Below are positions 1 through 13,160 of a DNA stretch of 13,160 nt, piece after piece. This DNA comes from Alphaproteobacteria bacterium. Lineage in GTDB: Bacteria; Pseudomonadota; Alphaproteobacteria; UBA6615. The translations under genes and the position numbers were made by a program. Each line of letters opens with the position of its first letter. Position 1 is the stretch's first letter. Location: NCBI GenBank assembly GCA_017643325.1, contig JAEPNS010000060.1, positions 1 through 13,160 of the forward strand, given 5' to 3'. Below the pieces are notes generated by a model. It was not told the origin of the DNA and made no database searches. It was given only the letters and a program-made list of their open reading frames with translations.

Positions 1-2
1 AC

Positions 3-767
3 CACCAGTTCTGTTTCGGCGATTCCAACGGCTGTGCGTCCGGCGGCAACCTGGAGGAGGCGATCCTGCAGGGTACGCTGGAGCTGATCGAGCGTGATGC
101 GATTTCGCAGTGGTGGTACAACCGCCTGGCGCTGCCGGCGGCCGACCTGTCGGGCGTCGACACAAAGATCGTCGACTCCATGGAGCGCTACTGCAACGAG
201 CACGGCCTGACGTTCGAGGTGCTCGACCTGACCGCCGACCTTGGCATCCCCGTGGCCGCCTGCGTCACCGCCCGCGCCAGCGACGGCGGCGCGATCACCA
301 TCGGCTTCGGGGCGCATCTCGACCCGGTCGTTGCGTCGACCCGCGCGCTCACGGAGGTCAGCCAGCTGCTGCCGTTCAACGACCAGGGCGAGTTCGCGCT
401 GGACGGGGACAAGTTCACGGCCGCGAAGGACTGGTACGACACGGCGTTCCTGGAGCAGCATCCCTACCTGAAGGCGGCGGACGCTGACCGGGCGGACCTC
501 GCGCCGGGCCTCGGGGATGTGGCGTCGATCGACCAGGCGGTGCGGTTCTGCGTCGACCGGCTGGCGGAATTCGACCTCGAGCTGATCGTGCACGACTTCG
601 ACCGCAAGGACGTGCCGCTGTCGGCGGTGCGCACCGCGGTTCCGGGCATCTGCCACTTCTGGAACCGGCGCGGCAACCCGCGGCTCTACGAGGCGCCGGT
701 GCGCGCCGGTCGGCTCGACAAGCCGCTGACCGAGGACGAACTGAACCCGATCAGCTTCTACGTCTGA
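3..767 (+). CDS. YcaO-domain protein, C-terminal ~255 aa (5' end lies outside the window)
   Basis: Frame 3 is open from position 3 and is the same frame as the listed 180-767 ORF. It translates to HQFCFGDSNGCASGGNLEEAILQGTLELIERDAISQWWYN..., the characteristic YcaO ATP-binding/active-site motif (GxASGxxxEEAxLQGxxELxERDA). GC3 bias is strong. No TfuA-like or other partner gene follows; downstream is a 246-bp noncoding gap. Confidence 0.8.
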   Translation, partial: HQFCFGDSNGCASGGNLEEAILQGTLELIERDAISQWWYNRLALPAADLSGVDTKIVDSMERYCNEHGLTFEVLDLTADLGIPVAACVTARASDGGAITIGFGAHLDPVVASTRALTEVSQLLPFNDQGEFALDGDKFTAAKDWYDTAFLEQHPYLKAADADRADLAPGLGDVASIDQAVRFCVDRLAEFDLELIVHDFDRKDVPLSAVRTAVPGICHFWNRRGNPRLYEAPVRAGRLDKPLTEDELNPISFYV

Positions 768-1253: not shown

Positions 1254-1275
1254 GCTCAAGGCCGGCTCAAGGCCG
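1254..1275. repeat. Perfect tandem 11-mer (ggctcaaggcc x2) spanning the stop codon of the SPFH gene
   Basis: Direct reading: ggctcaaggcc at 1254-1264 and again at 1265-1275. Confidence 0.5.
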
Positions 1276-2634
1276 GGTCACGACCGGCGGCGCGTTGCTC
1301 GGCCGGTTCAGGTCCATCGCCGCACCGGGCGACAGCTCGGTCCCCATGTCGGCCCCCGGGTCGCTGCCCGACATCGCGGTGGTCCCGGTCGAGAGGATCT
1401 GCTGGCTCGCTTCGGGGTTGCCGCCCTGGTCGCCCGCGATCCCGAGACGGCGCAGCGTGCGCTGCCAGCTCGATTCCCGCCGGCTGTGGGAAGAACCGGA
1501 TACGCCCGGCTGCAGGTCCTGGCCGGTCTCGCTGCGCGGCTTCTGCCCGGCGTCGCCCTGGGTCTGGCCCGGGCTGTCGGACGGGTCGAGTTGCGTCCCC
1601 GACGGGGCGGCCGGGAAGGGCTGGCGGGTCGCCGGCTGGTTCATGATGTTGCGGCCGTCGTTCGGGAAGATCGGCGGCAGGCTCTGGAAGTTCGGCAGCT
1701 GGAACTGTTCGGCCGTGACCGGCGGCACCGGCTGCGGCGTGCTCGGCACGTTGGCGATGTCGCTGCCGAGGATCAGCGGCAGCTGGTCCCTGTTGCCGCC
1801 GACGACCACCACCTTGGAGTTCGGCGACTGCGAGAGCTGCACCGTCGCCTCGATGCCGCGCCAGGTGAGCAGCGTGTCGTTCAGCGCCTCGCTGACGATC
1901 GCGTAGAAGTTCCGCAGGCCGATCGCCTGCACGCGCAGGCGCTCGGCCTCGCGCTGCTCGGCGGCGATCAGGAACTCGTACCCGGCCGCGCGCTGCTCCT
2001 GCGCGAGCTTGACGTCGATGGCCGTCGCGACCTGGACCGGCAGGCGGATCTCGGTGATCACAAGGTCGTCGATGGCGATGTCCGCCGACAGGCCGTGCTG
2101 GCGCATCCGCCGCAGGATGTTCTCCTGCAGTTCGGGGTGGTCGACCGAGTAGAGCTCGTTCGAGTTGATGTGGGTGATCTCGTCACGAATGATCGAGCGG
2201 ACCAGGGGCTCGACGATGCGGGTCGGGTAGTCGAGCCCGAGGCGCGTCAGTACGTCCGGCGTGTTCTCGGAGACCGGGCGGAAGAGGGCGGCGCCCTCGA
2301 CCGTCACCCGCATGCCCTCGGCCGACAGGGCGACGACCTCGTAGGGCAGGCGCTGGGTGCGGACCTCGAACAGGAAGATCCTGTCCCAGGGCAGCTTCGC
2401 GGTCAGGCCCTCGCCGATGGTGTCGTCGAGCACCGTGCCCCCGTCGAGCAGGCTGAAGTACACGCCGACATGGCCCGGCGGGACGGTCACGAAGACGAAG
2501 CGCCACAGCACCAGCAGCAGGAAGCCGACAAGGATCGCGATGCCGACCGCCCAGGCAACGATCTTCTCGGTCCTGCCGAACAGCGGTTGCTGCCCGTTGC
2601 GGCGCGCGGCCGTATCTGCCTGTTGCGTCGTCAT
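1267..2634 (-). CDS. SPFH/band-7 (prohibitin/HflC-like) membrane protein with a ~180-aa low-complexity Pro/Gln/Gly/Ser-rich C-terminal tail
   Basis: N-terminal TM helix (IVAWAVGIAILVGFLLLVLW) followed by a band-7-like core (VPPGHVGVYFSLL...EIRLPVQVATAIDVKLAQEQRAAGYEFLIAAEQREAE). The C-terminal third is compositionally biased and disordered-looking. The start ATG (2634-2632) overlaps the upstream ABC gene stop as ATGA. Confidence 0.75.
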   Translation of the reverse strand: MTTQQADTAARRNGQQPLFGRTEKIVAWAVGIAILVGFLLLVLWRFVFVTVPPGHVGVYFSLLDGGTVLDDTIGEGLTAKLPWDRIFLFEVRTQRLPYEVVALSAEGMRVTVEGAALFRPVSENTPDVLTRLGLDYPTRIVEPLVRSIIRDEITHINSNELYSVDHPELQENILRRMRQHGLSADIAIDDLVITEIRLPVQVATAIDVKLAQEQRAAGYEFLIAAEQREAERLRVQAIGLRNFYAIVSEALNDTLLTWRGIEATVQLSQSPNSKVVVVGGNRDQLPLILGSDIANVPSTPQPVPPVTAEQFQLPNFQSLPPIFPNDGRNIMNQPATRQPFPAAPSGTQLDPSDSPGQTQGDAGQKPRSETGQDLQPGVSGSSHSRRESSWQRTLRRLGIAGDQGGNPEASQQILSTGTTAMSGSDPGADMGTELSPGAAMDLNRPSNAPPVVTRP

Positions 2635-4274
2635 CGGGTCTCCTCCCCGTCGGCGGTGCGTTCACGCGCCTGTCCGTCGACCAGCACCAGCGTGCGGTCG
2701 GCGACATGGAAATACTGATCCTCGTGGCTGACGATCACAAGGGTTCGGCCCTCGCGTTTCCACTTCGGAAGCAGCTCGTTGTAGAAGCGTTGGCGGAATT
2801 CAGGGTCCTGGTCGGCGGCCAGCTCGTCGAGCACGAGGATCGGCCGGTTTTCCAGCAGCGCAACCGCCAGCGCAAGACGCTTGCGCTGGCCGGTCGACAG
2901 GTTCGTATTCGTGAATACGCCCTCGCGGTACTGGGTCTTGTGCGCGATGCCGAGCTCGCCGAGCAGCGCGTTGACGTCGGCCTCGGGCACATGCTCGAGG
3001 CCGTAGAGGCGGTCGAACAGGTGGAAATCGCTGAACACACCCGAGAACAGCGCGCGGTAGTCGGCGACGTTGCTCTCGTCGACCGGCACGCGGTCGCGGT
3101 AGATCATGCCGGATTCCGGCTCGTACAGCCGGGTCAGCGCCTTGACCAGCGTCGACTTGCCGCTGCCGTTGCCGCCGACGAGAAACAGCATCTCGCCGCG
3201 CTGGATATGCAGGCTCGTCGGGCCCATCGTGAAGCTGCGCGCGCCGTCCGGGTCGTAGTAGCTGTAGCGCAGGTCCTCGATGTCGATCCGCTCGAACGTC
3301 TCGCCATCCTCGGGCGCGGCTTCCGGGCGCAGCGCGTCGCGCAGGAACCTCTCGACCGTGTCCAGTTCGTCGATCGCGAAATTCGCCCGGGTGATGACGG
3401 GCACGGCTTTCAGGATCACCTCGACGACCGACAGCATGAACACGGCCACGTAGACCGACTGCACGATCACCGCCTGGTCGCCCACGAAGGGCGGCAGCAC
3501 GAACGCGATCATCGCCAGCGTCGTGTAGAAGAACAGGTAGGAGACGCTGATCCCGCGATTGATCTGGATGGCGGCCTCGACCTGGGCGTTGCGAAGCATC
3601 CCGGACTCCGGGGCGAGGTGGCTGTGCTCCAGTGAATCGCCGCGCGGATGGTTGAGCTTCACTTCCTTGAAGCCGTCGATCAGGTGCCGGAACAGCGCGT
3701 AGAAGATGCCCTGCCGCTCGCTCGACGCGGTCAGGGATTCGTGCACCTGCCGCTGCGTCAGGCGGTAGAAGAAGGCGGTCAGCACGATCAGGGTCGCGAT
3801 CACCGCGAACACCAGCGGCGAGACGAGAAGGGTGTAGAAGCCCGCCAGCACCAGCGCGCCGAAGGCCGACACGCCGTGGATCGCCATGATGGCGGCCTCA
3901 GTCAGCATCTGCGAGTTGCGGGTCAGCGTGTCGTAGACCCGGTTCGGTCCGAAGCTTTCGAACCGGCCGTAGTCCGACCGCCGGACGAGGTCGGCATAAT
4001 CCCGGCGGATGCGGTCGAGCAGGTCCTCGACGATGGCCGCCGACAGGCGCTGGCCGACGGCGTTGCCGCCGATGACGCCGAACGCCACGAGTGCGAACAA
4101 AAGGAGGCCGAACAGGTCGGGTGTTGCCGTGCCGTCGGACCCGGTCTCGGGGTCCAGCACGAAGCTGATCACGACCAGCACGCCCAGCAGGCCGAAGGTG
4201 CTGGCCATCAAAGACAGGATCAGCTTGAGGCGGCGTTCCCCCGCCGCTTCCCAGACCAGCCGAATGAACTTCAC
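2631..4274 (-). CDS. Fused permease/ATPase ABC exporter of the YojI/SyrD/PvdE 'cyclic peptide transporter' type, 547 aa
   Basis: N-terminal half carries about 6 hydrophobic TM segments. C-terminal half carries Walker A GGNGSGKST, ABC signature LSTGQRKRLALAVAL and Walker B/D-loop ILVLDELAADQDPEF, which is typical of that family. The start is GTG at 4274-4272 (plus-strand cac), preceded by GAGGA 6 nt upstream on the minus strand. Confidence 0.85.
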   Translation of the reverse strand: MKFIRLVWEAAGERRLKLILSLMASTFGLLGVLVVISFVLDPETGSDGTATPDLFGLLLFALVAFGVIGGNAVGQRLSAAIVEDLLDRIRRDYADLVRRSDYGRFESFGPNRVYDTLTRNSQMLTEAAIMAIHGVSAFGALVLAGFYTLLVSPLVFAVIATLIVLTAFFYRLTQRQVHESLTASSERQGIFYALFRHLIDGFKEVKLNHPRGDSLEHSHLAPESGMLRNAQVEAAIQINRGISVSYLFFYTTLAMIAFVLPPFVGDQAVIVQSVYVAVFMLSVVEVILKAVPVITRANFAIDELDTVERFLRDALRPEAAPEDGETFERIDIEDLRYSYYDPDGARSFTMGPTSLHIQRGEMLFLVGGNGSGKSTLVKALTRLYEPESGMIYRDRVPVDESNVADYRALFSGVFSDFHLFDRLYGLEHVPEADVNALLGELGIAHKTQYREGVFTNTNLSTGQRKRLALAVALLENRPILVLDELAADQDPEFRQRFYNELLPKWKREGRTLVIVSHEDQYFHVADRTLVLVDGQARERTADGEETR

Positions 4275-4366: not shown

Positions 4367-5968
4367 CTAGAATTTGCGGCGGAGTTCCATGCGCACGCCG
4401 GCCAGATCCTCGTCGTTCTCGCGGATGCCGTACATGGCGTCGGTGCGCAGCAGCCACCGGTCGCGGCCGAAGAGGTTCATCTGGTAGCGCAGGCCGAGCG
4501 CATACTGGTCGCCGCGCGCGGCGGACGAGCGCGACATCGGCTGGACGGTGGCGAGTTCGGCAACGATCTGCCGTGACAGGTCGAACAGGTAGCTCACGCC
4601 GATCGCCCCGCCCCACGCATCGCGCGCGGTATCGTCGAGCTTGGGAAACCCCGTCAGTGCGTCGGTCTCGAAGTTGATGCCGGTGTTCTTGAGCAGCCCG
4701 TCGCCACCGCGCGCCAGCGGCTGCGGACGGTCGAGGCCGATGAAGGCGTTGAAGTAGGGAACCAGCGTCGTCGGCAGCGACGTGACGAGCGAGTTCTCCA
4801 CCAGCAGGGCCACGCCGTCGGCGGTCTGCGTCTGGTCGCCGCCGGGATCCTGTCCGACGGCCCACACGGCGCGCACCGAGTTGGACAGCCAGCCGCCGTA
4901 GCGCTTGGTCCAGGCGCCAACGAAGTTATGGTAGCTGAAGTCGCCCTGGGGCCGGTCGCGGGTATCGTCGGTATAGCCCCAGCCCGCCTCCAGGTGGCCC
5001 TCCCGCATGTCGGCGAAGGTCACGACACCGACCACGTTGCCTGCATGGTCGGCGAGCGCGCCGTCGTCGTCCACGAGCGCCGCGCTCGAGACCTTGTCGA
5101 CACCGCCGAAGAAGGTGATGTCGTAGTTGGAGATATCCAGCCGGCGCGAGTTGCGTGCGGTGAGCGCAAACGCGCCGCCGACGAACGCGTCGTCGACCCA
5201 GATGCCGTTCTGGAAGAACATCGGAACAAGCCCGAAGGTGAACGGCAGGTCCCAGCTCGTGTATTCGTCCGACAGGCCGGTGTAGATGGCGCCGAGGTCG
5301 CCTTCGAAGAAGAAGTTCTCGACATTGGCGTCGAGGATCAGGTCGCCCTGGTCGCGGTCGTTGCCGGCGAACTCGTAGCGCGTGAACTGCCCGCCCTGGT
5401 CGACCGGCCGGAAGAAGGCGTGCAGCCGCTCCGTCGCCGTCAGTTTCAGGTCCACATCGAGGTTGAGCCGCGTGGCGACGAGCCCGGTTTCGGTGTCGCC
5501 GTTGTCGTTGAAGGCGACGGCGGTGCGCCAGTCGCCATAGACCAGAAGCTGCGGCCGGACGAGATTCTTCGCCCCGACCAGGTCATGGCCGGCGCCGATC
5601 GGGCCCTCGCGGTATTGCGGGTATCCGAACTCGAGCACCGGGCGCGGCGTGGTCACCGCGCGCTTGCCGCCGTAGATCTCGAGTTGTGCCTCGACGTCGT
5701 ATGGCTCGTCCGGGTAGGTCGGGTCCGGCCGGTAGTCTTCGGCATCGTGCGAGGAGCGCCGGACGGCGGGGTCCATCTCCGGCGGTGCCTGGTGGCCCTC
5801 ATGCTCCGGGCTGCCGGTGCGCTCCTCCTGGAGTTCCGGCGGCGGCGCGCCGCGGCGCGGGGTCTGCGCGGTCTCGATGACAGTCTGGGCGACGGCGCTG
5901 CCGGCGACAAGAAGCGCGGCGGCCAGGGCTGCGGCCGGGGCCGATCGTTTCATGGTGTCCAACATCAC
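4367..5968 (-). CDS. Putative outer-membrane beta-barrel (porin-like) protein, 533 aa. Has a Sec signal peptide and a disordered acidic/Pro/His-rich N-terminal extension.
   Basis: Signal peptide MKRSAPAAALAAALLVAGSAVAQ. The body has alternating hydrophobic/polar residues with abundant Gly/Asp/Asn/Tyr. It ends in ...RMELRRKF with a terminal Phe, typical of OM beta-barrels. The start overlaps the stop of the upstream cytochrome gene (ATGA at 5965-5968). Confidence 0.6.
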   Translation of the reverse strand: MMLDTMKRSAPAAALAAALLVAGSAVAQTVIETAQTPRRGAPPPELQEERTGSPEHEGHQAPPEMDPAVRRSSHDAEDYRPDPTYPDEPYDVEAQLEIYGGKRAVTTPRPVLEFGYPQYREGPIGAGHDLVGAKNLVRPQLLVYGDWRTAVAFNDNGDTETGLVATRLNLDVDLKLTATERLHAFFRPVDQGGQFTRYEFAGNDRDQGDLILDANVENFFFEGDLGAIYTGLSDEYTSWDLPFTFGLVPMFFQNGIWVDDAFVGGAFALTARNSRRLDISNYDITFFGGVDKVSSAALVDDDGALADHAGNVVGVVTFADMREGHLEAGWGYTDDTRDRPQGDFSYHNFVGAWTKRYGGWLSNSVRAVWAVGQDPGGDQTQTADGVALLVENSLVTSLPTTLVPYFNAFIGLDRPQPLARGGDGLLKNTGINFETDALTGFPKLDDTARDAWGGAIGVSYLFDLSRQIVAELATVQPMSRSSAARGDQYALGLRYQMNLFGRDRWLLRTDAMYGIRENDEDLAGVRMELRRKF

Positions 5969-7821
5969 TGAATCTCGAACTCGACCGCGTAGGGATGGAT
6001 GTCGATCATCCAGTCGTTGATCCGTTCCTCCATCTCGCGCGTCGCGCCGACGAAGCGCATGAAGTAGATGGGCTCGGCGCGCGAGCGCATGCGCACCTGC
6101 AGCTTGTAGGTACCGGGCTTGGTCAGCAGTTCGCCGGGCACCTCGTACTCCGCGTCACGCCAGCCGAGCGGCGGGATCGAGCGGCCCTCCATGCGCACGA
6201 AGGGCGGATGGTTCAGCACCGTCGTCGGCAGGTTGGCCGGGCGCAGGAATGGCAGCTGGTCGATGTCGAACTGCACCGGCAGGTACATTTCCCGGTCCGT
6301 GCCCTTGACGTTGGTGGTCAGGAACTTGGTCTGCAGGTTGAAGAGCTGGTCGTCATGCTCGATCGTGCCCGCCGCGACGTCGAGCGAATGCAGGTCCGCC
6401 ATGTCGCCGAGGGAGTCGACGTAGCCCGATTCCCAGATGTTCTTGCCGTCAGGGTCGAGCAGCGCGACGTTCAGCCAGATCTCGGGCTGCGCGCCCAGCG
6501 AACCCGAGGGCAGGTTGTGGCCCTTGTCGGTGTTCGTGACCCGGTAGCGGAAACTGAAATCCCGGCCGAGGCGCGGCGCGCCGTCGTCGAAGAAGGGCCC
6601 GTCGATCCGGCTGCCGTTCTCCATCACGGCGAGGCGGTCGCGGCGCTTGTCCTCCAGCAGCTTCTCGTTCTGCTGGATCACGAAGCGGGCGAACATGCGG
6701 TCATCGCGCTTGCGCCAGACGTCCGGGAAGTCCGGCGTCGCGATCTCGCCGTCACGCAGCCGGTTCTCCCACTCGGCCAGGCCCCACCCGGCGCGGTAGT
6801 CGAAGGTGAGCCATTCCTTGATCGACCAGCGCAGGCCGCGCGGATTGAACGGGAACAGGCCCGGATGCGAGATCGGGTAGCCGGGACCGTAGAAGGCGTG
6901 GTTCGAATGGCGCGCGTTCGGGTCGCCGATCACGCGGCCGTTGACGATCGCGACCGGCCACTCCGCATAGCCCTTCGCCTCGCCCGGCACCTTGCCCATG
7001 TGGCATTCCTGGCACGTGACGCCGGCCTCCGCGGCGGGGCTGTCGCGATACTGCTCCCACACGACCTCGAGCTTGATGCCGAGGTTGACGGCCACCTGGT
7101 GGCAGGACACGCAGAACTGGGATTCGCCGATCTGCTCGAACTCGATGGCGCCGAGGTGAATCTTCGCGCCGTCGGGGTCTTCCTGGGTTGCGACCTTGTA
7201 CTCGTCCGGATTGCTGAGCACGTTCTCGAGATTGTCGGCGCGCCCGATGCCGTAGACCGGCTGCTCGATCGGGCCGGGCTCGATGTGGCGCTCGCCGTTC
7301 ACCTTGCCGAATTCCGCGCCGACGCGGTGGCAGGTGACGCAGGTGATGCCCTCGCGCGCGACGATCGAGCGCTCCCACAGCGGCTTTTCGCGGGCCTCGC
7401 CGCGCTGGGTGCCGACCTGCTGGTGGCAGCGCACGCAGAACGCGCCGATCGTGCCGGACGACAGGTCGTTGATGGCCTGCTCGAACTTGTGGAACATCGG
7501 CGAGATCGACGCGTAGGCGTGGTTCGATGACGCCCACTCCGTGAAGATCTTCTGGTGGCACCGCCCGCAGGTCACGGCCGACGGAAACTCGGTCTCCTCA
7601 AACAGGGCCCGGTGCGGGTCCTTGCCCTCGGTCAGTGTCGACGCGGTCTGGTAGGCCGCCGGCACGTCGCTGCCGTCCGGCGCCGGCGCGAACCAGATCT
7701 GCGACGGGGGCAGCTCGTCCACCGTCATCGCGGTGTCGGAGATGGCCGGCGTCGCGCCGGAGAAAAGAAGGGCGGCGCCGAAGAGGAGCCAGGGGGAATT
7801 GAATTGGCGAAGCACGGGCAC
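5965..7821 (-). CDS. Pentaheme c-type cytochrome, 618 aa; periplasmic, with a heme-free C-terminal ~350 aa
   Basis: Sec-type signal (LLFGAALLFSGA). Five CXXCH motifs (CGRCH, CVRCH, CVTCH, CVSCH, CQECH) all lie in the first ~270 aa. The start is GTG at 7821-7819 (plus-strand cac), 3 nt after the stop of the upstream cytochrome gene, consistent with termination-reinitiation. Confidence 0.85.
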   Translation of the reverse strand: MPVLRQFNSPWLLFGAALLFSGATPAISDTAMTVDELPPSQIWFAPAPDGSDVPAAYQTASTLTEGKDPHRALFEETEFPSAVTCGRCHQKIFTEWASSNHAYASISPMFHKFEQAINDLSSGTIGAFCVRCHQQVGTQRGEAREKPLWERSIVAREGITCVTCHRVGAEFGKVNGERHIEPGPIEQPVYGIGRADNLENVLSNPDEYKVATQEDPDGAKIHLGAIEFEQIGESQFCVSCHQVAVNLGIKLEVVWEQYRDSPAAEAGVTCQECHMGKVPGEAKGYAEWPVAIVNGRVIGDPNARHSNHAFYGPGYPISHPGLFPFNPRGLRWSIKEWLTFDYRAGWGLAEWENRLRDGEIATPDFPDVWRKRDDRMFARFVIQQNEKLLEDKRRDRLAVMENGSRIDGPFFDDGAPRLGRDFSFRYRVTNTDKGHNLPSGSLGAQPEIWLNVALLDPDGKNIWESGYVDSLGDMADLHSLDVAAGTIEHDDQLFNLQTKFLTTNVKGTDREMYLPVQFDIDQLPFLRPANLPTTVLNHPPFVRMEGRSIPPLGWRDAEYEVPGELLTKPGTYKLQVRMRSRAEPIYFMRFVGATREMEERINDWMIDIHPYAVEFEIQ

Positions 7822-7824
7822 GTC

Positions 7825-9126
7825 CTAGTTCAGGTAATCCCGGAGTTTGGCGAGCGCGCTGCGGAAGCCGCTCGATGAGTAGCGGGTCGGGGACTCGGTG
7901 GCCTCGTAGAGGCTTTCGAGTTGCTGCGGCGCGGACCGTCCGAGGGAATCGAGCAGCGCCGCGGCGGCCATGGTGGCCTGTTCGGCGGCGCCGAAGTCGA
8001 CATAGTCCGAGGAATGATCGCGCGATACGAGGGTCGCGAGGGTTGCCTTGAGGTCGGCTTCGCGCAGCGGGTTCTCGACGAGGTTCCGGGTCATGCCGTC
8101 GACCGTGCCCGCGAGCGTGTCAGCCGCGCGCGCCACGGCCGACGCACCCTGGCGGGTGGCGCGGTGCAGGGCGCGGGTCTGTGACTTGAGCGTGTCCGCC
8201 AGCTTGGAATCGCGTCCCTCGGCGATCGCGCGGAGCATCACGAGGTTCGCGTCGTAGAGCTGCGGTTCGCCGGGACCGAGGCCGACACCGGGCTGCGGCG
8301 ACCATTTCGCGTTCGTGTAGGAGTGATGGCAGCTGCCGCACTCGAAGAAGGTGAACTCGGGGAACAGGTGGTTGCGTCCGCGCATGGACTTCGCGAGCGC
8401 GCGCAGCTGGTTGCCGGCGGCGACGGCCTGGCCGATGGCCCACAGGTTTGCCCCGTCCGTCACCGGCTTGCGCTGGCGGTAGTCGTCGTCGATGCGCACA
8501 TGGGCCGGCTGGTTTATGGAGAAGGTGTCGAGCTCGAAGGACAGGCGCGGATGGCCCGCGGCCATCAGGCGGTGCGACACGATCCGGTCCGGGTTGGCCT
8601 GGTGGCATCCGAGGCAGAGTTCCGCCCGCTTCACCGGGTCGTCGGTCGGGTACATGCCCAGCGAGACCAGTGTCGGCCGGTCGCTCAGGCCGCTGACGTG
8701 GGTGCCGAGCCAGTTCTCCGCCCCGCCGTGACAGCTCTCGCAGCCGACACCGCTGGTGATGTCGAAATTGTTGCCGCGCCGGTCTTCGGACACATTGTCC
8801 GCGTGGCACTGCAGGCAGGTCCCGGATTCATGGGCGGCGCCGATCCCCAGCCGCGCGGCGATGCGCTTTCCCCGGTCCGACTGGAGCGCCTTGTAGGCAC
8901 CGGAATGCGCGTCGTGCGTGCTCCAGACAACAAACTCGTTCTGCAACACGACCGAGTTCTGCCAAGGCTGCACCGCGCCGTGACAGGTCGAGGCGGCACA
9001 GGTCTGCACGCCGAGATGGATCGCGCCGTTGTCCTGCGCGAGCGCCTGGTTTGACGTGAACGAAAGTCCGAAAATCAGCGCCGCAACGAACAGGTCGCGA
9101 ACGGCGCGTGCCCCTTGAAAATTCAT
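7825..9126 (-). CDS. Multiheme c-type cytochrome, 433 aa: 4 canonical CXXCH plus one CX4CH, with an Ala-rich helical C-terminal half
   Basis: Signal peptide ending ...SNQALAQ. Motifs CAASTCH (CX4CH), CLQCH, CESCH, CLGCH, CGSCH. The CAASTCH motif was verified by reverse-complementing 8980-9000. First gene of the minus operon that starts at the 9127-9284 divergent region. Confidence 0.85.
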   Translation of the reverse strand: MNFQGARAVRDLFVAALIFGLSFTSNQALAQDNGAIHLGVQTCAASTCHGAVQPWQNSVVLQNEFVVWSTHDAHSGAYKALQSDRGKRIAARLGIGAAHESGTCLQCHADNVSEDRRGNNFDITSGVGCESCHGGAENWLGTHVSGLSDRPTLVSLGMYPTDDPVKRAELCLGCHQANPDRIVSHRLMAAGHPRLSFELDTFSINQPAHVRIDDDYRQRKPVTDGANLWAIGQAVAAGNQLRALAKSMRGRNHLFPEFTFFECGSCHHSYTNAKWSPQPGVGLGPGEPQLYDANLVMLRAIAEGRDSKLADTLKSQTRALHRATRQGASAVARAADTLAGTVDGMTRNLVENPLREADLKATLATLVSRDHSSDYVDFGAAEQATMAAAALLDSLGRSAPQQLESLYEATESPTRYSSSGFRSALAKLRDYLN

Positions 9127-9210
9127 TTTTGCCCCGACCGCTGCCCTGCGGCCCCTTCGCGTTCGATTTCGGAACGGTAACCCAGTATACTCAAATCAGT
9201 TTGTTGGTGT

Positions 9211-9226
9211 AGTGATTCGTATCACA
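9211..9226. promoter_or_regulatory. Candidate CRP/FNR-family operator (aGTGAttcgtaTCACa) in the divergent promoter region between the cytochrome operon and the flavo-FeS operon
   Basis: 16-mer agtgattcgtatcaca matches TGTGA-N6-TCACA with one mismatch. Its core GTGAT-N4-ATCAC is a perfect palindrome resembling the FNR box TTGAT-N4-ATCAA. It is centred ~66 bp upstream of the 9285 start and ~92 bp upstream of the 9126 start. The surrounding 9127-9284 region is the most AT-rich stretch in the locus. Confidence 0.4.
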
Positions 9227-9284
9227 CCCTTCGGCTTGGGCAGCCGGCAGGGTTATTGTAAGGGAGCGGGCCGCCTCAAGGCCC

Positions 9285-11678
9285 GTGGGTTCTGGGGAGA
9301 GTTTCGGGGGCGTGTCTCAGGTTCAGGTCGCCATCGTGGGTTCGGGTCCGGCAGGATTGAGCGCCGGCGCGCGCGCGGCCGTGCGCGGCCTGTCGCATGT
9401 CGTTCTCGAGCGGACCGAGCAGCCGAGCAACACGATCTTCCGCTTCCAGAAGGGTAAGCATGTCATGGCGCAGCCGGCGCACACGCCGCTGCGCAGCGAG
9501 ATCCCGTTCGAGGACGGACGCCGCGAGGATGTGCTCGCGGCCTGGCTTGCCCGCGCGGAAGAACTCGGGGTCAATTTCCGGTTCAATTCCGAGGTCACCG
9601 GCATCACCGGGAGCCGGGGCGATTTCGTCATTTCGCTCGCCGACGGCGAGGAGGTGCGCGCCGAGACGGTCGTGCTTGCCGTCGGACTGCAGGGCAACCT
9701 GAACAAGCTGCGCGTGCCCGGCGCCGAGCTGCCGCATGTCGGCTACCAGCTCGACGATCCCGACGAATTCGAGCATGAGCGGATCGCCGTGATCGGCGGC
9801 GGCGACGCCTCGATCGAGAACGCGCTCGCGCTGGCGGAGCACAACGAGGTCACGATCATCAACCGCTCGGACGAGTTCGCCCGGGCGAAGTCCGCCAACG
9901 AGAGCGCGATCCTCGCCGCGATCGAGTCGGGACGGATGGACGTGGCCTACAACGCGAACACGATCGCGATCGAGCCGGACACGCTGGTGCTCGAGACGCC
10001 CGAGGGCGAGGCGCGCATTCCCTGCGAGCGGATCATCGCGCGTCTCGGCGCGGCGCCGCCGCGCAAGCTGGTCGAGGCCTGCGGCGTGGAATTCCCGACG
10101 GAGGAACGCAACGCGCTGCCGGAGGTCTCCCCGCAGTACGAATCGAACGTGCCCGGGCTGTACGTCGTCGGTGCGCTCGGCGGGTTCCCGCTGATCAAGC
10201 AGGCCCTCAACCAGGGCTACGAGGTCATCGAGCATATCGTCGGGGAGGATGTGGAACCGGCGGACGCGCCGCTGCTGCGCGAGAAAATCTCCGCGGCGCA
10301 GGGCTGGGACGTCGACGGCTTCCTCGAGGCGGTGCGCACGCGTGTCCCGATCTTCGCCGAGCTCAATGCGCTGGTCCTTCGCGACACGATGCTCGAGTCC
10401 GAGGTGCACAGTTTCACGGACGGCGAGATCGTGTTCCGCCGGAACGACTACACCAACAGCCTGTATGTGGTCATCGAGGGCGCGGTGCGGATCCATCTCG
10501 ACGACGAGATGCCGCCGAAGGCGAGCGTGCAGCTGGGGCAGGGCGCCTTCTTCGGAGAGATGGGCCTGATTTCCGGCCGCCGGCGCAACGCGACCGTGTC
10601 CGCGATCGGCAACGCGCTGCTCCTCGAGGTGCCGCGGCGGCGGATGATCACCTTGCGGGCGAGCGTACCGTCGGTCCGCGAGGCGATGGACCGCGAGGCG
10701 GTGGCACGCTCGATCCAGTCGCACCTCGCGCCGGGTCTCGACCGCGACAGCATCGACGACATCGCGGCCGCGGCCACGATCCACAACTGGTCGAAGGGTC
10801 AGGTTCTGTTCAGCGAGGGCGAGGAGGGCGACAGCCTGCACCTCATCCGCCGCGGCTCGGTGCTCGTGCGCAAGAAGATCGGCGACCACGACGTCGTCCT
10901 GAACTATGTGGCGGCCGGCAACTATGTGGGCGAGATGGCGCTGGTCAGCGGCGAGCCGCGCAACGCGACCGTCGCGGCGGCCGCCGACTGCGAGACCATC
11001 CGCATCGAGCGCGACGACTTCAACCGGCTGATGGACCGCCACCCCGACCTGCGCACCGAGATCGAGCAGGTGCGCGAGGCGCGCGCCGCGATCACCGCCC
11101 GCATGGCCGAGAGCCCGGACCAGGGCAGCCTGATCGAGTTCCTGGTCGACCAGGGCGGCAAGGAAGCCACCGACATCCTGCTGATCGACGAGTCCCTGTG
11201 CGTCGGCTGCGACAACTGCGAGAAAGCCTGCGCCGGCACCCACGGCGGCATCACGCGGCTCGACCGCGAGGCGGGGCCGACCTACGCCGACATGCACGTG
11301 CCGACATCCTGCCGGCACTGCGAGCATCCGCACTGCATGAGCGACTGCCCGCCCGACGCCATCAAGCGCGCGATGGGCGGCGAGGTCTACATCACCGATG
11401 CCTGCATCGGCTGCGGCAACTGCCAGCGCAATTGCCCCTACGACGTGATCCAGATGGCGAACCCGCAGATGGGCGAGCGCGGCTGGCTCGCGAGCCTGCT
11501 CGGCGGCATGGCCGGCAAGCGCGCCGAGGTGTCCGACGGGCCCAAGCAGGCCGTGAAGTGCGACATGTGCCTCGACATCGACGGCGGCCCGGCCTGCGTG
11601 CGGGCCTGCCCGACCGGCGCGGCAATCCGCGTCCATCCGTCCGAGGTTATCGAGCTCGTGACCGGGAGCGGGCGATGA
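9285..11678 (+). CDS. Multidomain redox protein, 797 aa: FAD/NAD(P)-binding oxidoreductase (two Rossmann motifs, no CXXC), then two tandem cNMP-binding domains, then a NrfC/FdnH/PsrB-like four-cluster [4Fe-4S] ferredoxin module
   Basis: VAIVGSGPAGL (FAD GxGxxG) and VIGGGDASIENA (NAD(P) motif). Two cNMP-binding signatures: FGEMGLISGRRRNATV and VGEMALVSGEPRNATV. Four Cys clusters: CVGCDNCEKAC, CRHCEHPHCMSDCP, CIGCGNCQRNCP and CDMC...ACVRACPTGA. No signal peptide, so it is cytoplasmic. The GTG start at 9285 is uncertain; GTG at 9312 (VSQVQVAIVG...) is an alternative. Confidence 0.8.
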   Translation: MGSGESFGGVSQVQVAIVGSGPAGLSAGARAAVRGLSHVVLERTEQPSNTIFRFQKGKHVMAQPAHTPLRSEIPFEDGRREDVLAAWLARAEELGVNFRFNSEVTGITGSRGDFVISLADGEEVRAETVVLAVGLQGNLNKLRVPGAELPHVGYQLDDPDEFEHERIAVIGGGDASIENALALAEHNEVTIINRSDEFARAKSANESAILAAIESGRMDVAYNANTIAIEPDTLVLETPEGEARIPCERIIARLGAAPPRKLVEACGVEFPTEERNALPEVSPQYESNVPGLYVVGALGGFPLIKQALNQGYEVIEHIVGEDVEPADAPLLREKISAAQGWDVDGFLEAVRTRVPIFAELNALVLRDTMLESEVHSFTDGEIVFRRNDYTNSLYVVIEGAVRIHLDDEMPPKASVQLGQGAFFGEMGLISGRRRNATVSAIGNALLLEVPRRRMITLRASVPSVREAMDREAVARSIQSHLAPGLDRDSIDDIAAAATIHNWSKGQVLFSEGEEGDSLHLIRRGSVLVRKKIGDHDVVLNYVAAGNYVGEMALVSGEPRNATVAAAADCETIRIERDDFNRLMDRHPDLRTEIEQVREARAAITARMAESPDQGSLIEFLVDQGGKEATDILLIDESLCVGCDNCEKACAGTHGGITRLDREAGPTYADMHVPTSCRHCEHPHCMSDCPPDAIKRAMGGEVYITDACIGCGNCQRNCPYDVIQMANPQMGERGWLASLLGGMAGKRAEVSDGPKQAVKCDMCLDIDGGPACVRACPTGAAIRVHPSEVIELVTGSGR

Positions 11679-12511
11679 GCGCGGCACCCCTGCACAGCGG
11701 GTTCCTGACCCACAAGCGGATGATGTTCGCCTGGCTGGCGCTGCTGCTCGTGCTCGCCGTCGCCGCGGCCTGGTACTGGCAGGAGATGCTGCCGCCGTCG
11801 GCGGTGGATCTCGGGTTCAGCTACGGGCTGGGGACGCTGGCACTTGTGATCATGCTCTGGCTGACATGGTTCGGCGTGCGCAAGCGCAGCTACGCGAAAG
11901 GGGCGGGGCGGCTGAAGGCGTGGCTGTCGGCGCATGTCTATCTCGGCCTGTCGCTGGTGTTCCTCGTGCCGCTGCACGGCGGCTTCACCATCGCGCCGGA
12001 CATCCACGGGATCGCCTATGTCCTCGTGCTGGTCACGGTCTTCACCGGCCTGTTCGGGGTCGCGTTCTACGGTTTCTACCCCCGCCGGGTGACCGCGAAC
12101 CGCGAGGGACTGACCTTCGACGCGATGCTCAAGCGGATCGCGGAGATCGACATCGAGCTGCGCGGCCTGTCGACCCAGCTGTCGGAGGCGGCCAACAACA
12201 TCGTGCGCCGCGAGGCGGAATCGGGCCGCATCGGAGGCGGCGTGGGAATCCTGTTCGCCCGGCCGATCAACAAGGCACGGCGCGCACGCCAGGCGCTGCT
12301 GCGGCTCAACCTCGACTCCGACGCGGGCAACCGCGCGGCGGCGCTGCTCGAGAGCAAGGCGGCCGTGGTCGACAGGCTGCAGCGCGATATCCAGATGCGC
12401 TCGCGCCTGCGGGCGTGGCTGCTGCTCCATGTGCCGCTGTCGCTTGCGACCCTCGCGGCGGTGATCGCCCACGCGGCGGGCATGCTCATGTTCGGCCTCG
12501 GATCGGTGTAA
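11675..12511 (+). CDS. Integral membrane protein (~5 TM, 278 aa) with two His-x13-His pairs in TM helices; candidate diheme cytochrome b membrane anchor
   Basis: ATG at 11675 overlaps the upstream stop (ATGA at 11675-11678). The six-frame track's 11198 start lies inside the upstream gene and is rejected. TM3 WLSAHVYLGLSLVFLVPLHGG and TM5 LLLHVPLSLATLAAVIAHAAG each carry two His 14 residues apart, as in bis-heme b ligation of cytochrome b/FdnI-type subunits. A ~130-aa Arg/Ala-rich soluble region lies between TM4 and TM5. Confidence 0.7.
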   Translation: MSAAPLHSGFLTHKRMMFAWLALLLVLAVAAAWYWQEMLPPSAVDLGFSYGLGTLALVIMLWLTWFGVRKRSYAKGAGRLKAWLSAHVYLGLSLVFLVPLHGGFTIAPDIHGIAYVLVLVTVFTGLFGVAFYGFYPRRVTANREGLTFDAMLKRIAEIDIELRGLSTQLSEAANNIVRREAESGRIGGGVGILFARPINKARRARQALLRLNLDSDAGNRAAALLESKAAVVDRLQRDIQMRSRLRAWLLLHVPLSLATLAAVIAHAAGMLMFGLGSV

Positions 12512-12517
12512 CCGGCC

Positions 12518-13160
12518 ATGCGCGTCCTCGTCACACACCGCCTGCGCCGCACCCGCCGGGAAGGCTATGTCGAGCGCTCCGAGACGCTCGAGGGCGAAAC
12601 CATCCGGATCGGGCGCGGCTCGGATGTCGAGCTGCACCTGCCGGACGGGCGCGTCCTCCTGCACCATGCCACTCTCGCGGTCGAGAACGGCGAGCTGATG
12701 CTGCGCGCGGACCCGAGCGCGGAGATCGAGCTCGACGGCATCCCGGTGGATATCGCCCAGCTCACGCCGGGCCGCACCGTCGCCGTCGGCCCGTACGACA
12801 TTACCTGCGGCGAAGCTGTCGAGGGCCACGACGCCTGTATCAGTGTCGAGCTCGCGCGCCCCATGGGCGATGCCGAGACGATCGTGCGCGAGCGCGTCCG
12901 CACGCCCCTGCTGTCGCGTTCACGCAGCGGATGGGCGCTCGGCGGCCTGCTGGGGCTGGTGCTGCTGGTCGTCGGCGTGGGCATCCCGCTGAGCTCGTTC
13001 CTCGGCGAGCGCGAGACGCAGCGCGTCGCGACCGACGCGGGCGAGACCGACATCATGCGGATGGCGGAGAGCATGTGGCTGACCGAGCAGCTCTCGAGCG
13101 TGCATGACAACCTCGAGGCCGGCTGCCAGGCCTGCCATGTCACGCCCTTTGCGACCGTCG
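12518..13160 (+). CDS. Partial CDS (3' end outside the window): FHA-like N-terminal domain, one TM helix, then an extracytoplasmic region containing a CXXCH heme-binding motif
   Basis: It is absent from the six-frame track because there is no stop before the window end, but frame 2 is open from ATG 12518 to 13160 with strong GC3 bias. N-terminus ETIRIGRGSDVELHLPDGRVLLHHATLAVENGELMLRADPSAEIELDGIPV resembles an FHA fold (GR...SR.HA pattern). TM helix WALGGLLGLVLLVVGVGIPLSSFL. CQACH lies near the window end. Confidence 0.6.
   Translation, partial: MRVLVTHRLRRTRREGYVERSETLEGETIRIGRGSDVELHLPDGRVLLHHATLAVENGELMLRADPSAEIELDGIPVDIAQLTPGRTVAVGPYDITCGEAVEGHDACISVELARPMGDAETIVRERVRTPLLSRSRSGWALGGLLGLVLLVVGVGIPLSSFLGERETQRVATDAGETDIMRMAESMWLTEQLSSVHDNLEAGCQACHVTPFATV

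Follow-up and report, generated by a model that had tools for sequence, protein, structure and literature searches.

The window analyzed here is a 13,160-nucleotide stretch of DNA from an alphaproteobacterium (assembly GCA_017643325.1, contig JAEPNS010000060.1), and from position 4,367 to its right end it carries two divergent sets of genes that are predicted to encode an electron-transfer system of the cell envelope. On the plus strand lie genes for a cytoplasmic flavin and iron-sulfur (FeS) protein, a membrane protein with two histidine pairs and a membrane-anchored cytochrome c, and on the minus strand lie genes for two secreted multiheme cytochromes c and an outer-membrane (OM) β-barrel. 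Searches with profile hidden Markov models (Pfam and NCBIfam), together with an open reading frame listing and motif counts, upheld this six-part inventory as it had been given in the original prediction, with every part present at the coordinates given below and with cofactor motifs conserved over dozens of homologues. Judging by its predicted proteins, this locus represents a copy of the ptdABCDEFG cluster, in a variant wherein a flavin domain that would oxidize NAD(P)H is fused to the FeS protein. We base this identity on a part-by-part match to the published description, including the domains, the heme motifs, the PtdG protein of a close relative, and the structural models of the barrel and of PtdA.

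The ptdABCDEFG cluster was named in 2023 from its pentaheme, tetraheme and decaheme proteins, and to the knowledge of its authors the operon had no earlier description (bioRxiv 10.1101/2023.11.21.568154). These authors consider it a putative porin-cytochrome complex whose function, in their words, "remains completely unknown". The published roles are those of a porin for PtdB, an FAD/NAD(P)-binding oxidoreductase for PtdC, a periplasmic tetraheme cytochrome for PtdD, a protein with cyclic-nucleotide (cNMP) binding domains and 4Fe-4S clusters for PtdE, a transmembrane (TM) ferric-reductase-like protein for PtdF and a periplasmic decaheme cytochrome for PtdG, whereas PtdA is described as homologous to cytochrome c552 of Thermochromatium tepidum (bioRxiv 10.1101/2023.11.21.568154). 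The same preprint reports that the cluster is prevalent in marine and saline Alpha- and Gammaproteobacteria, Nitrospirales and Planctomycetes, and that in an oxygen-deficient zone ptdA is transcribed at approximately 890-900 and ptdB at approximately 505-514 fragments per kilobase per million mapped reads (FPKM). Our literature search for later work on Ptd turned up the original preprint alone, and the cluster is not covered in PMC11475568. The system had been put forward to us as undescribed, a claim that has to be withdrawn because the same cluster had already been named and proposed to be a porin-cytochrome complex.

The window agrees with the published clusters in the taxa that carry them and in their saline habitats. 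It differs in four respects. First, a separate PtdC is missing; instead, PtdE is fused to a thioredoxin reductase (TrxR)-like FAD/NAD(P)H domain. Second, the genes are divided over two divergent operons. Third, PtdG carries an FHA/YscD-like cytoplasmic head, whereas the head is Cys-rich in a second variant described below. Fourth, the cofactor content is apparently larger, because 16 cysteines in PtdE point to four FeS clusters where the paper gives two, and a fifth heme site, CX4CH, is conserved in PtdD.

To place the locus among its relatives, we drew on a homologue scan of 185,579 species-representative genomes, which gave at least 567 loci with a PtdA relative, of which 80 were fetched; PtdA has more than 3000 homologues when these are counted as protein clusters, with identities typically of 65-85%. 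Co-location was counted in the 34 full loci, which extend at least 10 kb to either side, using a distance limit of 10 kb. The loci come from Alpha-, Beta- and Gammaproteobacteria and from Planctomycetota, with hosts that are mostly aerobic heterotrophs. The closest of them (L007 and L009) are from marine alphaproteobacterial metagenome-assembled genomes, with a PtdA identity of 83-85%. The source contig and the window share the same right end, where ptdG is cut, and therefore the full-length PtdG was read from L009 in place of the window copy.

The expectation that the gene pairs co-occur in other genomes is borne out. The ptdB gene directly follows ptdA in almost all of the approximately 80 loci, and in the full loci ptdA is accompanied within 10 kb by ptdB (34/34), ptdD (30/34), the cNMP-FeS gene ptdE (28/34), ptdF (27/34) and the decaheme gene ptdG (25/34). 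No further gene is consistently associated with ptd in these loci, and no type II secretion system, TonB, lipoprotein or extra cytochrome gene is conserved nearby. The two gene sets are divergent in the window, L007 and L009, convergent in Ferrovibrio (L003) and Halofilum (L005), and joined in one operon in L039, L061 and L054.

Such variable orientation (divergent, convergent or tandem) would be compatible with two independent neighbors, in which ptdD, ptdA and ptdB depend on the general cytochrome or quinol pool while the flavo-FeS, b-type and decaheme operon serves some other acceptor. The same can be said of the six full loci that have ptdA and ptdB, in some cases with ptdD, and none of ptdE, ptdF or ptdG within 10 kb. 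However, co-location is maintained in 28 of the 34 loci over several phyla despite rearrangements, the operons of L039, L061 and L054 unite seven or six of the genes, and none of the conserved neighbors is fit to be the acceptor of PtdE, PtdF and PtdG. We consequently judge independence to be quite improbable and retain the proposed functional linkage of both operons. The six loci lacking the plus-strand genes nearby suggest that the PtdA-PtdB module can probably be fed by other donors as well.

The gene of the ptdE type (9285..11678, plus strand) encodes a cytoplasmic protein of 797 amino acids with Pfam Pyr_redox_2/3, two cNMP_binding and 4Fe-4S domains. An alternative start at 9312, which is the one called on the source contig, would give 788 amino acids. 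The two cNMP_binding domains are matched at 5e-39, and their phosphate-binding-cassette GE...R motifs are at least 95% conserved. Partial NCBIfam matches are found to YpdA, CRP, HydN and AegA. All 16 cysteines of the FeS domain are invariant among 30 homologues, which suggests that this domain is loaded with four [4Fe-4S] clusters.

The flavin domain has no CxxC motif in residues 1-330 and is therefore not expected to act as a disulfide reductase. A thioredoxin or bacillithiol-disulfide reductase was rejected on this ground and on the basis of the family scores (135 bits versus 339.9 for TIGR04018, and 62 versus 343 for TIGR01292). Rather, we take the domain to resemble the TrxR-type ferredoxin-NADP reductases. 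No separate FAD/NAD(P)-binding ptdC gene is present in or beside the cluster within the window, and its role has apparently been taken over by the Pyr_redox domain fused to PtdE.

Comparison of the loci revealed two mutually exclusive variants of the cluster. Variant A accounts for 31 loci, the window among them; its protein of approximately 800 amino acids contains the TrxR-like flavin domain in fused form, and its decaheme protein bears an FHA-like head. Variant B accounts for 27 loci, such as Kordiimonadales L054 and Minwuia, and its PtdE of 558 amino acids has three cNMP domains and FeS sites but no flavin domain. In this variant, and only there, ptdB is followed by a separate PtdC, which is a TM-anchored FNR-like protein with NAD_binding_1 and 2Fe-2S domains. 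The decaheme protein of variant B is longer, and an N-terminal Cys-rich cytoplasmic segment replaces the FHA-like domain; examples of variant-B genes lie at 13335-14615 and 5351-7027 of L054 and at 7930-9930 of L067. The attachment of two flavin modules of different folds to the same chain of FeS clusters, b hemes and c hemes points to NAD(P)H as the redox partner, for which the variants thus provide good comparative evidence. The earlier proposal that electrons pass from cytoplasmic NAD(P)H via FeS clusters and two b hemes to c hemes is accordingly reasonable, and it is strengthened by the existence of these two forms.

The membrane step would be carried out by PtdF (11675..12511, plus strand), a protein of 278 amino acids with five TM helices and two H-x13-H pairs, at residues 87/101 in TM3 and 252/266 in TM5. 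A cytoplasmic insert of approximately 110 amino acids separates TM4 from TM5. Among 46 homologues with identities down to 22%, no variation is seen at His87, His101 or His252, and conservation of His266 reaches 98%. When the positive-inside rule is applied to the sequence, TM3 and TM5 run in the same direction, and each pair places one His near each membrane face, as expected for two putative stacked b hemes. Weak Pfam matches occur among 21 members of the family, to PF01292 (prokaryotic cytochrome b561) in 10 of them (best 6.7e-7) and to PF01794 (Ferric_reduct) in three. A PtdF profile searched against the sequences in the PDB gave spurious coiled-coil matches alone and no sequence relative.

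The arrangement of PtdE, PtdF and PtdG recalls NOX enzymes and other ferric-reductase-domain proteins, MsrQ-Fre, and the Tmc, Hmc and Dsr complexes, all of which combine a cytoplasmic flavin or FeS donor with two stacked b hemes on His pairs and a periplasmic acceptor. The spacing of 13 residues between paired His residues on two parallel helices is likewise that of TM3 of NOX and of cytochrome b. In contrast to these systems, PtdF stands alone as a 5-TM protein, has a large insert on the cytoplasmic side and matches PF01292 and PF01794 only below threshold, and its predicted donor has four [4Fe-4S] clusters and cNMP domains while its acceptor would be a TM-anchored decaheme cytochrome. That acceptor, PtdG (12518..13160, plus strand), is represented in the window by its first 214 codons, which encode an FHA/YscD-like domain in the cytoplasm, a single TM helix and the initial CXXCH motif. 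The head is a borderline assignment, with Yop-YscD_cpl at 2.2e-6 (28.3 bits) and FHA at 8.4e-4 (20.2 bits), both slightly under the Pfam cut-offs. The orthologue in L009 (3437-5143) is 55% identical, has 568 amino acids and 10 CXXCH motifs, and is the last gene of its operon.

The direction of flow through these proteins is a separate question. Inward flow, from a periplasmic or extracellular donor through the cytoplasmic FeS clusters and FAD to NAD(P)H, might be entertained, given that TrxR-type ferredoxin-NADP reductases are reversible and that some hosts are lithotrophs (Ferrovibrio and nitrite oxidizers). However, electron transfer from c-type hemes to NAD(P)+ would be uphill, entry into the negatively charged cytoplasm would be opposed by the membrane potential, the cluster has no subunit for energy coupling, and the hosts are mostly aerobic heterotrophs. 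This makes inward flow very improbable. We favor outward flow, which by bioenergetic principles would be downhill in redox potential and aided by the membrane potential, and we regard an export chain across the inner membrane as well supported by the comparative evidence. The path would bypass quinones and conserve no energy, and thus an assimilatory, detoxifying or redox-balancing role fits better than respiration.

The first of the two secreted cytochromes is encoded by a ptdD-like gene (7825..9126, minus strand). Its product of 433 amino acids has a Sec signal peptide, a Pfam Cytochrome_C554 match at 7.4e-9, and five heme sites, of which four are CXXCH motifs (residues 104, 129, 171 and 263) and one is CX4CH (residue 43), while the C-terminal 170 or so amino acids are heme-free. 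All five sites, including CX4CH, are 97-100% conserved among 65 homologues, and a fifth heme in PtdD is therefore probable. Some gammaproteobacterial single operons carry two tandem paralogues of the PtdD type, at 13217-14638 and 14943-16298 in L039 and at 13305-14660 and 14688-16049 in L061.

The second, PtdA (5965..7821, minus strand), is a secreted pentaheme cytochrome c of 618 amino acids with a highly conserved, heme-free C-terminal β-sandwich domain. Its CXXCH motifs (residues 85, 129, 161, 237 and 270) all fall within the first 275 residues and are followed by approximately 340 heme-free residues. All ten heme Cys and five heme His residues are invariant in an alignment of 44 sequences, in which no other Cys, and no selenocysteine, is invariant. 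PtdA is also the best conserved member of the system, with identities of 63-85% among relatives compared to 22-78% for its partner proteins. In addition, residues 70-609 contain 10-11 invariant His residues beyond the CXXCH motifs, including H305-x2-H308...H319, GH435NLPSG, H478 and H538. Five distal ligands would be enough for the hemes, and the remaining His residues point to an additional metal site or to a catalytic function. The high conservation of PtdA and its extra invariant His residues would suit a catalytic or metal-binding role.

Only one significant structural relative of the PtdA model was found, the soluble periplasmic cytochrome c552 of T. tepidum (PDB 5ZE8). This protein and MccSep/ExtKL of Geobacter sulfurreducens share with PtdA five N-terminal c hemes and a location in the periplasm without a lipid anchor, and MccSep/ExtKL also has an immunoglobulin (Ig)-like or β-sandwich domain after the five hemes. 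PtdA is approximately 200 amino acids longer. ExtKL had been listed among the putative OM electron conduits of G. sulfurreducens (PMC6148476). MccSep/ExtKL has since been shown to be a periplasmic polysulfide reductase, whose authors compare its structure with 5ZE8 and in which the Ig-like domain gives a catalytic selenocysteine to heme 2, whose ligands are His and Cys. Chemistry of this type was rejected for PtdA, which lacks an invariant non-heme Cys or selenocysteine and scores 34.3 bits with NF040886 against a cut-off of 250. A second candidate function, that of an NrfA nitrite reductase, was rejected as well, given the absence of a CXXCK motif and a PF02335 score of 21 bits (cut-off 24.1) over approximately 30 residues.

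The barrel protein PtdB (4367..5968, minus strand) has 533 amino acids, a signal peptide and a C-terminal Phe (...RRKF). The AlphaFold model is a β-barrel with a mean predicted local distance difference test (pLDDT) score of 80.8, which exceeds 90 across most of residues 140-533. As modeled, the fold has approximately 18 strands and would be that of substrate channels such as Occ/OprD and AlgE, and not that of the 26-strand MtrB sheath. Pfam and NCBIfam scans gave no family match for PtdB. Unlike the 18-strand channels Occ/OprD, AlgE, MOMP and chitoporin, it shows no detectable membership in a sequence family, it adds a conserved periplasmic N-terminal segment, and its gene is tied to that of a cytochrome. 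The family-specific parts are this segment of about 60 residues (approximately 80-139) and a very conserved long loop (approximately 414-450). In one clade (proteins P0150-P0176), PtdB homologues of approximately 840 amino acids are fused to PF24125, and one of these bears the source name 'ketosteroid isomerase-like'.

These characteristics bear directly on whether the chain reaches the cell surface. A true porin-cytochrome conduit across the OM would have PtdA, in whole or in part, placed in or on PtdB, and would serve acceptors that are insoluble or lie outside the cell, Fe(III) or Mn(IV) oxides for instance. This idea of the original prediction has also been hypothesized in print (bioRxiv 10.1101/2023.11.21.568154). 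A conduit would explain the pairing of a porin with three multiheme cytochromes that together have 20 c-hemes, the strict adjacency and frequent overlap of ptdA and ptdB, and the N-terminal extension of PtdB, which could be a dock for PtdA. PtdA also shows a weak Pfam similarity to domains II and IV of MtrC/MtrF. However, these matches (26.5 and 24.9 bits) are under the cut-off of 30, PtdA with its 618 amino acids and Ig-like domain is bulky, and its structural relative c552 is soluble. Furthermore, a feed by NAD(P)H that conserves no energy is ill-suited to respiration, and ExtKL, which has the same layout, proved to be a periplasmic enzyme.

The absence of an evident surface cytochrome is a further difficulty for the conduit. 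No Cys precedes residue 43 in PtdD or residue 85 in PtdA, which leaves no room for a lipobox ahead of the first heme motif, and PtdG is TM-anchored; none of the three can thus be a lipoprotein. We therefore consider a conduit rather unlikely. Comparison with MtrCAB and with the Pcc system OmaB-OmbB-OmcB leads in the same direction. Ptd has in common with them a barrel gene that adjoins multiheme cytochrome genes, and a multiheme periplasmic relay. It differs in that the barrel is of the 18-strand Occ/AlgE class and not a 26-strand, wide cytochrome sheath like MtrB; in that there is no surface lipoprotein cytochrome of the MtrC or OmcB type; in that the barrel is paired with a pentaheme protein that resembles c552 and has an Ig-like domain, and not with a decaheme rod of the MtrA type; and in that the predicted feed is a cytoplasmic NAD(P)H-dependent flavo-FeS protein and not a quinol dehydrogenase (CymA, ImcH or CbcL). 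An Mtr-type sheath was rejected on the basis of the 18-strand fold in place of 26 strands, the missing lipobox in PtdD and PtdA, and the absence of an extra conserved cytochrome gene.

Taken together, these observations lead us to a model, evenly balanced in our estimation between being right and wrong, wherein Ptd would be an NAD(P)H-fed, cNMP-gated export chain that ends at PtdA and PtdB, with the acceptor reduced at or near the channel rather than through an Mtr-like sheath. We infer the cofactor loading, the direction of flow and the protein contacts of this model from the observed gene content, cofactor motifs, conservation, co-location and folds. NAD(P)H would reduce the FAD of the TrxR-like domain of PtdE, subject to gating by cAMP or cGMP via the two cNMP domains, and the four [4Fe-4S] clusters would carry the electrons to the two b hemes of PtdF, held by four His residues on two parallel TM helices. 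Through these hemes the electrons would cross the inner membrane outward to the TM-anchored decaheme PtdG, which together with the pentaheme PtdD would relay them over the periplasm to PtdA. Such a decaheme and pentaheme relay would be long enough to reach an OM-associated PtdA-PtdB module. There, PtdA, with its c552/MccSep-fold pentaheme part and Ig-like domain, would act with the dedicated 18-strand channel PtdB, and the final acceptor may be a small solute or a chelated metal that passes PtdB and is reduced by PtdA at or near the channel.

In view of the fold of PtdB, the missing surface cytochrome and the kinship with c552 and MccSep, a reaction in the periplasm or at the mouth of the channel is more likely than an Mtr-like arrangement in which a cytochrome runs through the barrel. 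The earlier claim of a chain that spans the envelope up to the cell surface is consequently preserved for its inner-membrane part, whereas its OM step is called into question by a barrel of the Occ/AlgE class, by the missing lipoprotein cytochrome and by the soluble, c552-like relative of PtdA.

Several observations weigh against our model. The 20 c-hemes are many for a simple periplasmic reductase and more typical of long-range conduits, no catalytic residue was identified in PtdA, and the model of PtdA is of moderate confidence (pLDDT 65.8, although parts of the C-terminal domain exceed 90) and contains no hemes. The family assignment of PtdF comes from sub-threshold Pfam matches. To these may be added the six of 34 full loci, described above, that have a PtdA-PtdB module without the plus-strand partners.

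If electrons from NAD(P)H are indeed exported to the envelope, common marine bacteria would have a redox output that is independent of quinones and gated by nucleotides, with a bearing on marine iron, manganese, nitrogen or sulfur cycling. A bolder claim, which we consider unlikely, is that Ptd represents a new class of exporter spanning the whole envelope, in which a cNMP-gated, NOX-like NAD(P)H oxidase bypasses quinones and sends electrons by way of 20 c-hemes and an 18-strand channel out of aerobic marine bacteria. Such an exporter might serve in the reductive dissolution or uptake of Fe(III) and Mn or in the production of extracellular superoxide, and its OM mechanism would differ from those of Mtr, Pcc and Cyc2. 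The MccSep precedent cautions against taking every pair of cytochrome and barrel for a conduit.

The contribution of the window is therefore one of sharper constraints rather than of discovery. Beyond the published description, we observe that the cytochromes lack a lipobox, that two mutually exclusive variants carry flavin modules of different folds, and that the four PtdF His residues, the 16 FeS Cys residues and the CX4CH site of PtdD are conserved. The resulting constraints are a barrel of the channel type, the lack of any surface cytochrome that is a lipoprotein, NAD(P)H modules in two interchangeable forms, four conserved putative ligands of b hemes, four predicted FeS clusters and a probable fifth heme in PtdD.

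The gene junctions carry signals of co-transcription. On the plus strand, ptdE and ptdF share an ATGA overlap (11675-11678) and ptdF and ptdG are separated by 6 nucleotides (12512-12517), and on the minus strand the gap between ptdD and ptdA is 3 nucleotides (7822-7824). An ATGA overlap had been claimed for each strand. The one on the plus strand is confirmed, whereas the ptdA/ptdB junction (5965-5968) reads CAGTGATG and forms either a 4-nucleotide GTGA or a 1-nucleotide TGATG overlap.

The two operons are separated by a divergent intergenic region (9127..9284), which had been proposed to hold one shared promoter with a CRP/FNR-like site. The palindrome GTGATTCGTATCAC is indeed present at 9212-9225. 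It occurs once in the window, compared to a chance expectation of 0.17 for the whole window, and aligns with GTGATATTCGTCAC in L009, where the half-sites are kept at the same place; a degenerate copy is found in L007. A scan of the region for promoters detected no sigma-70-like consensus, and the GTGA-N6-TCAC palindrome is absent upstream of the flavoprotein gene beyond the closest relatives. The palindrome therefore does not qualify as a regulatory element conserved across the family, and its compatibility with a site for the CRP/FNR family is suggestive only. Directly upstream of the ptdD start (approximately 9127-9160), a conserved block reading GGGCAGCGGTCGGGG-N-AAAATGA is found in the window and in L007, and partly in L009. 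It may act as a leader or contribute to a ribosome-binding site.

To the left of the cluster, the window contains a gene for a YcaO-type cyclodehydratase (1-767, plus strand), which runs off the left edge with frame 3 open from base 3, followed by an SPFH/Band-7 gene (1267-2634, minus strand) that overlaps a gene for an ABC exporter of the cyclic-peptide type (2631-4274, minus strand; TIGR01194, 295 bits, above the cut-off). We rejected these genes as parts of the Ptd system, given that almost none of the related loci has them next to ptd. They may form the edge of a locus for a ribosomally synthesized and post-translationally modified peptide (RiPP) of the thiazole/oxazole-modified microcin (TOMM) type. 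Finally, the intergenic region after the YcaO gene contains nested inverted repeats (830-970) with outer arms at 830-855 and 945-970 and inner arms at 871-899 and 907-935, an element that looks like a repetitive extragenic palindrome (REP) or a miniature inverted-repeat transposable element (MITE).

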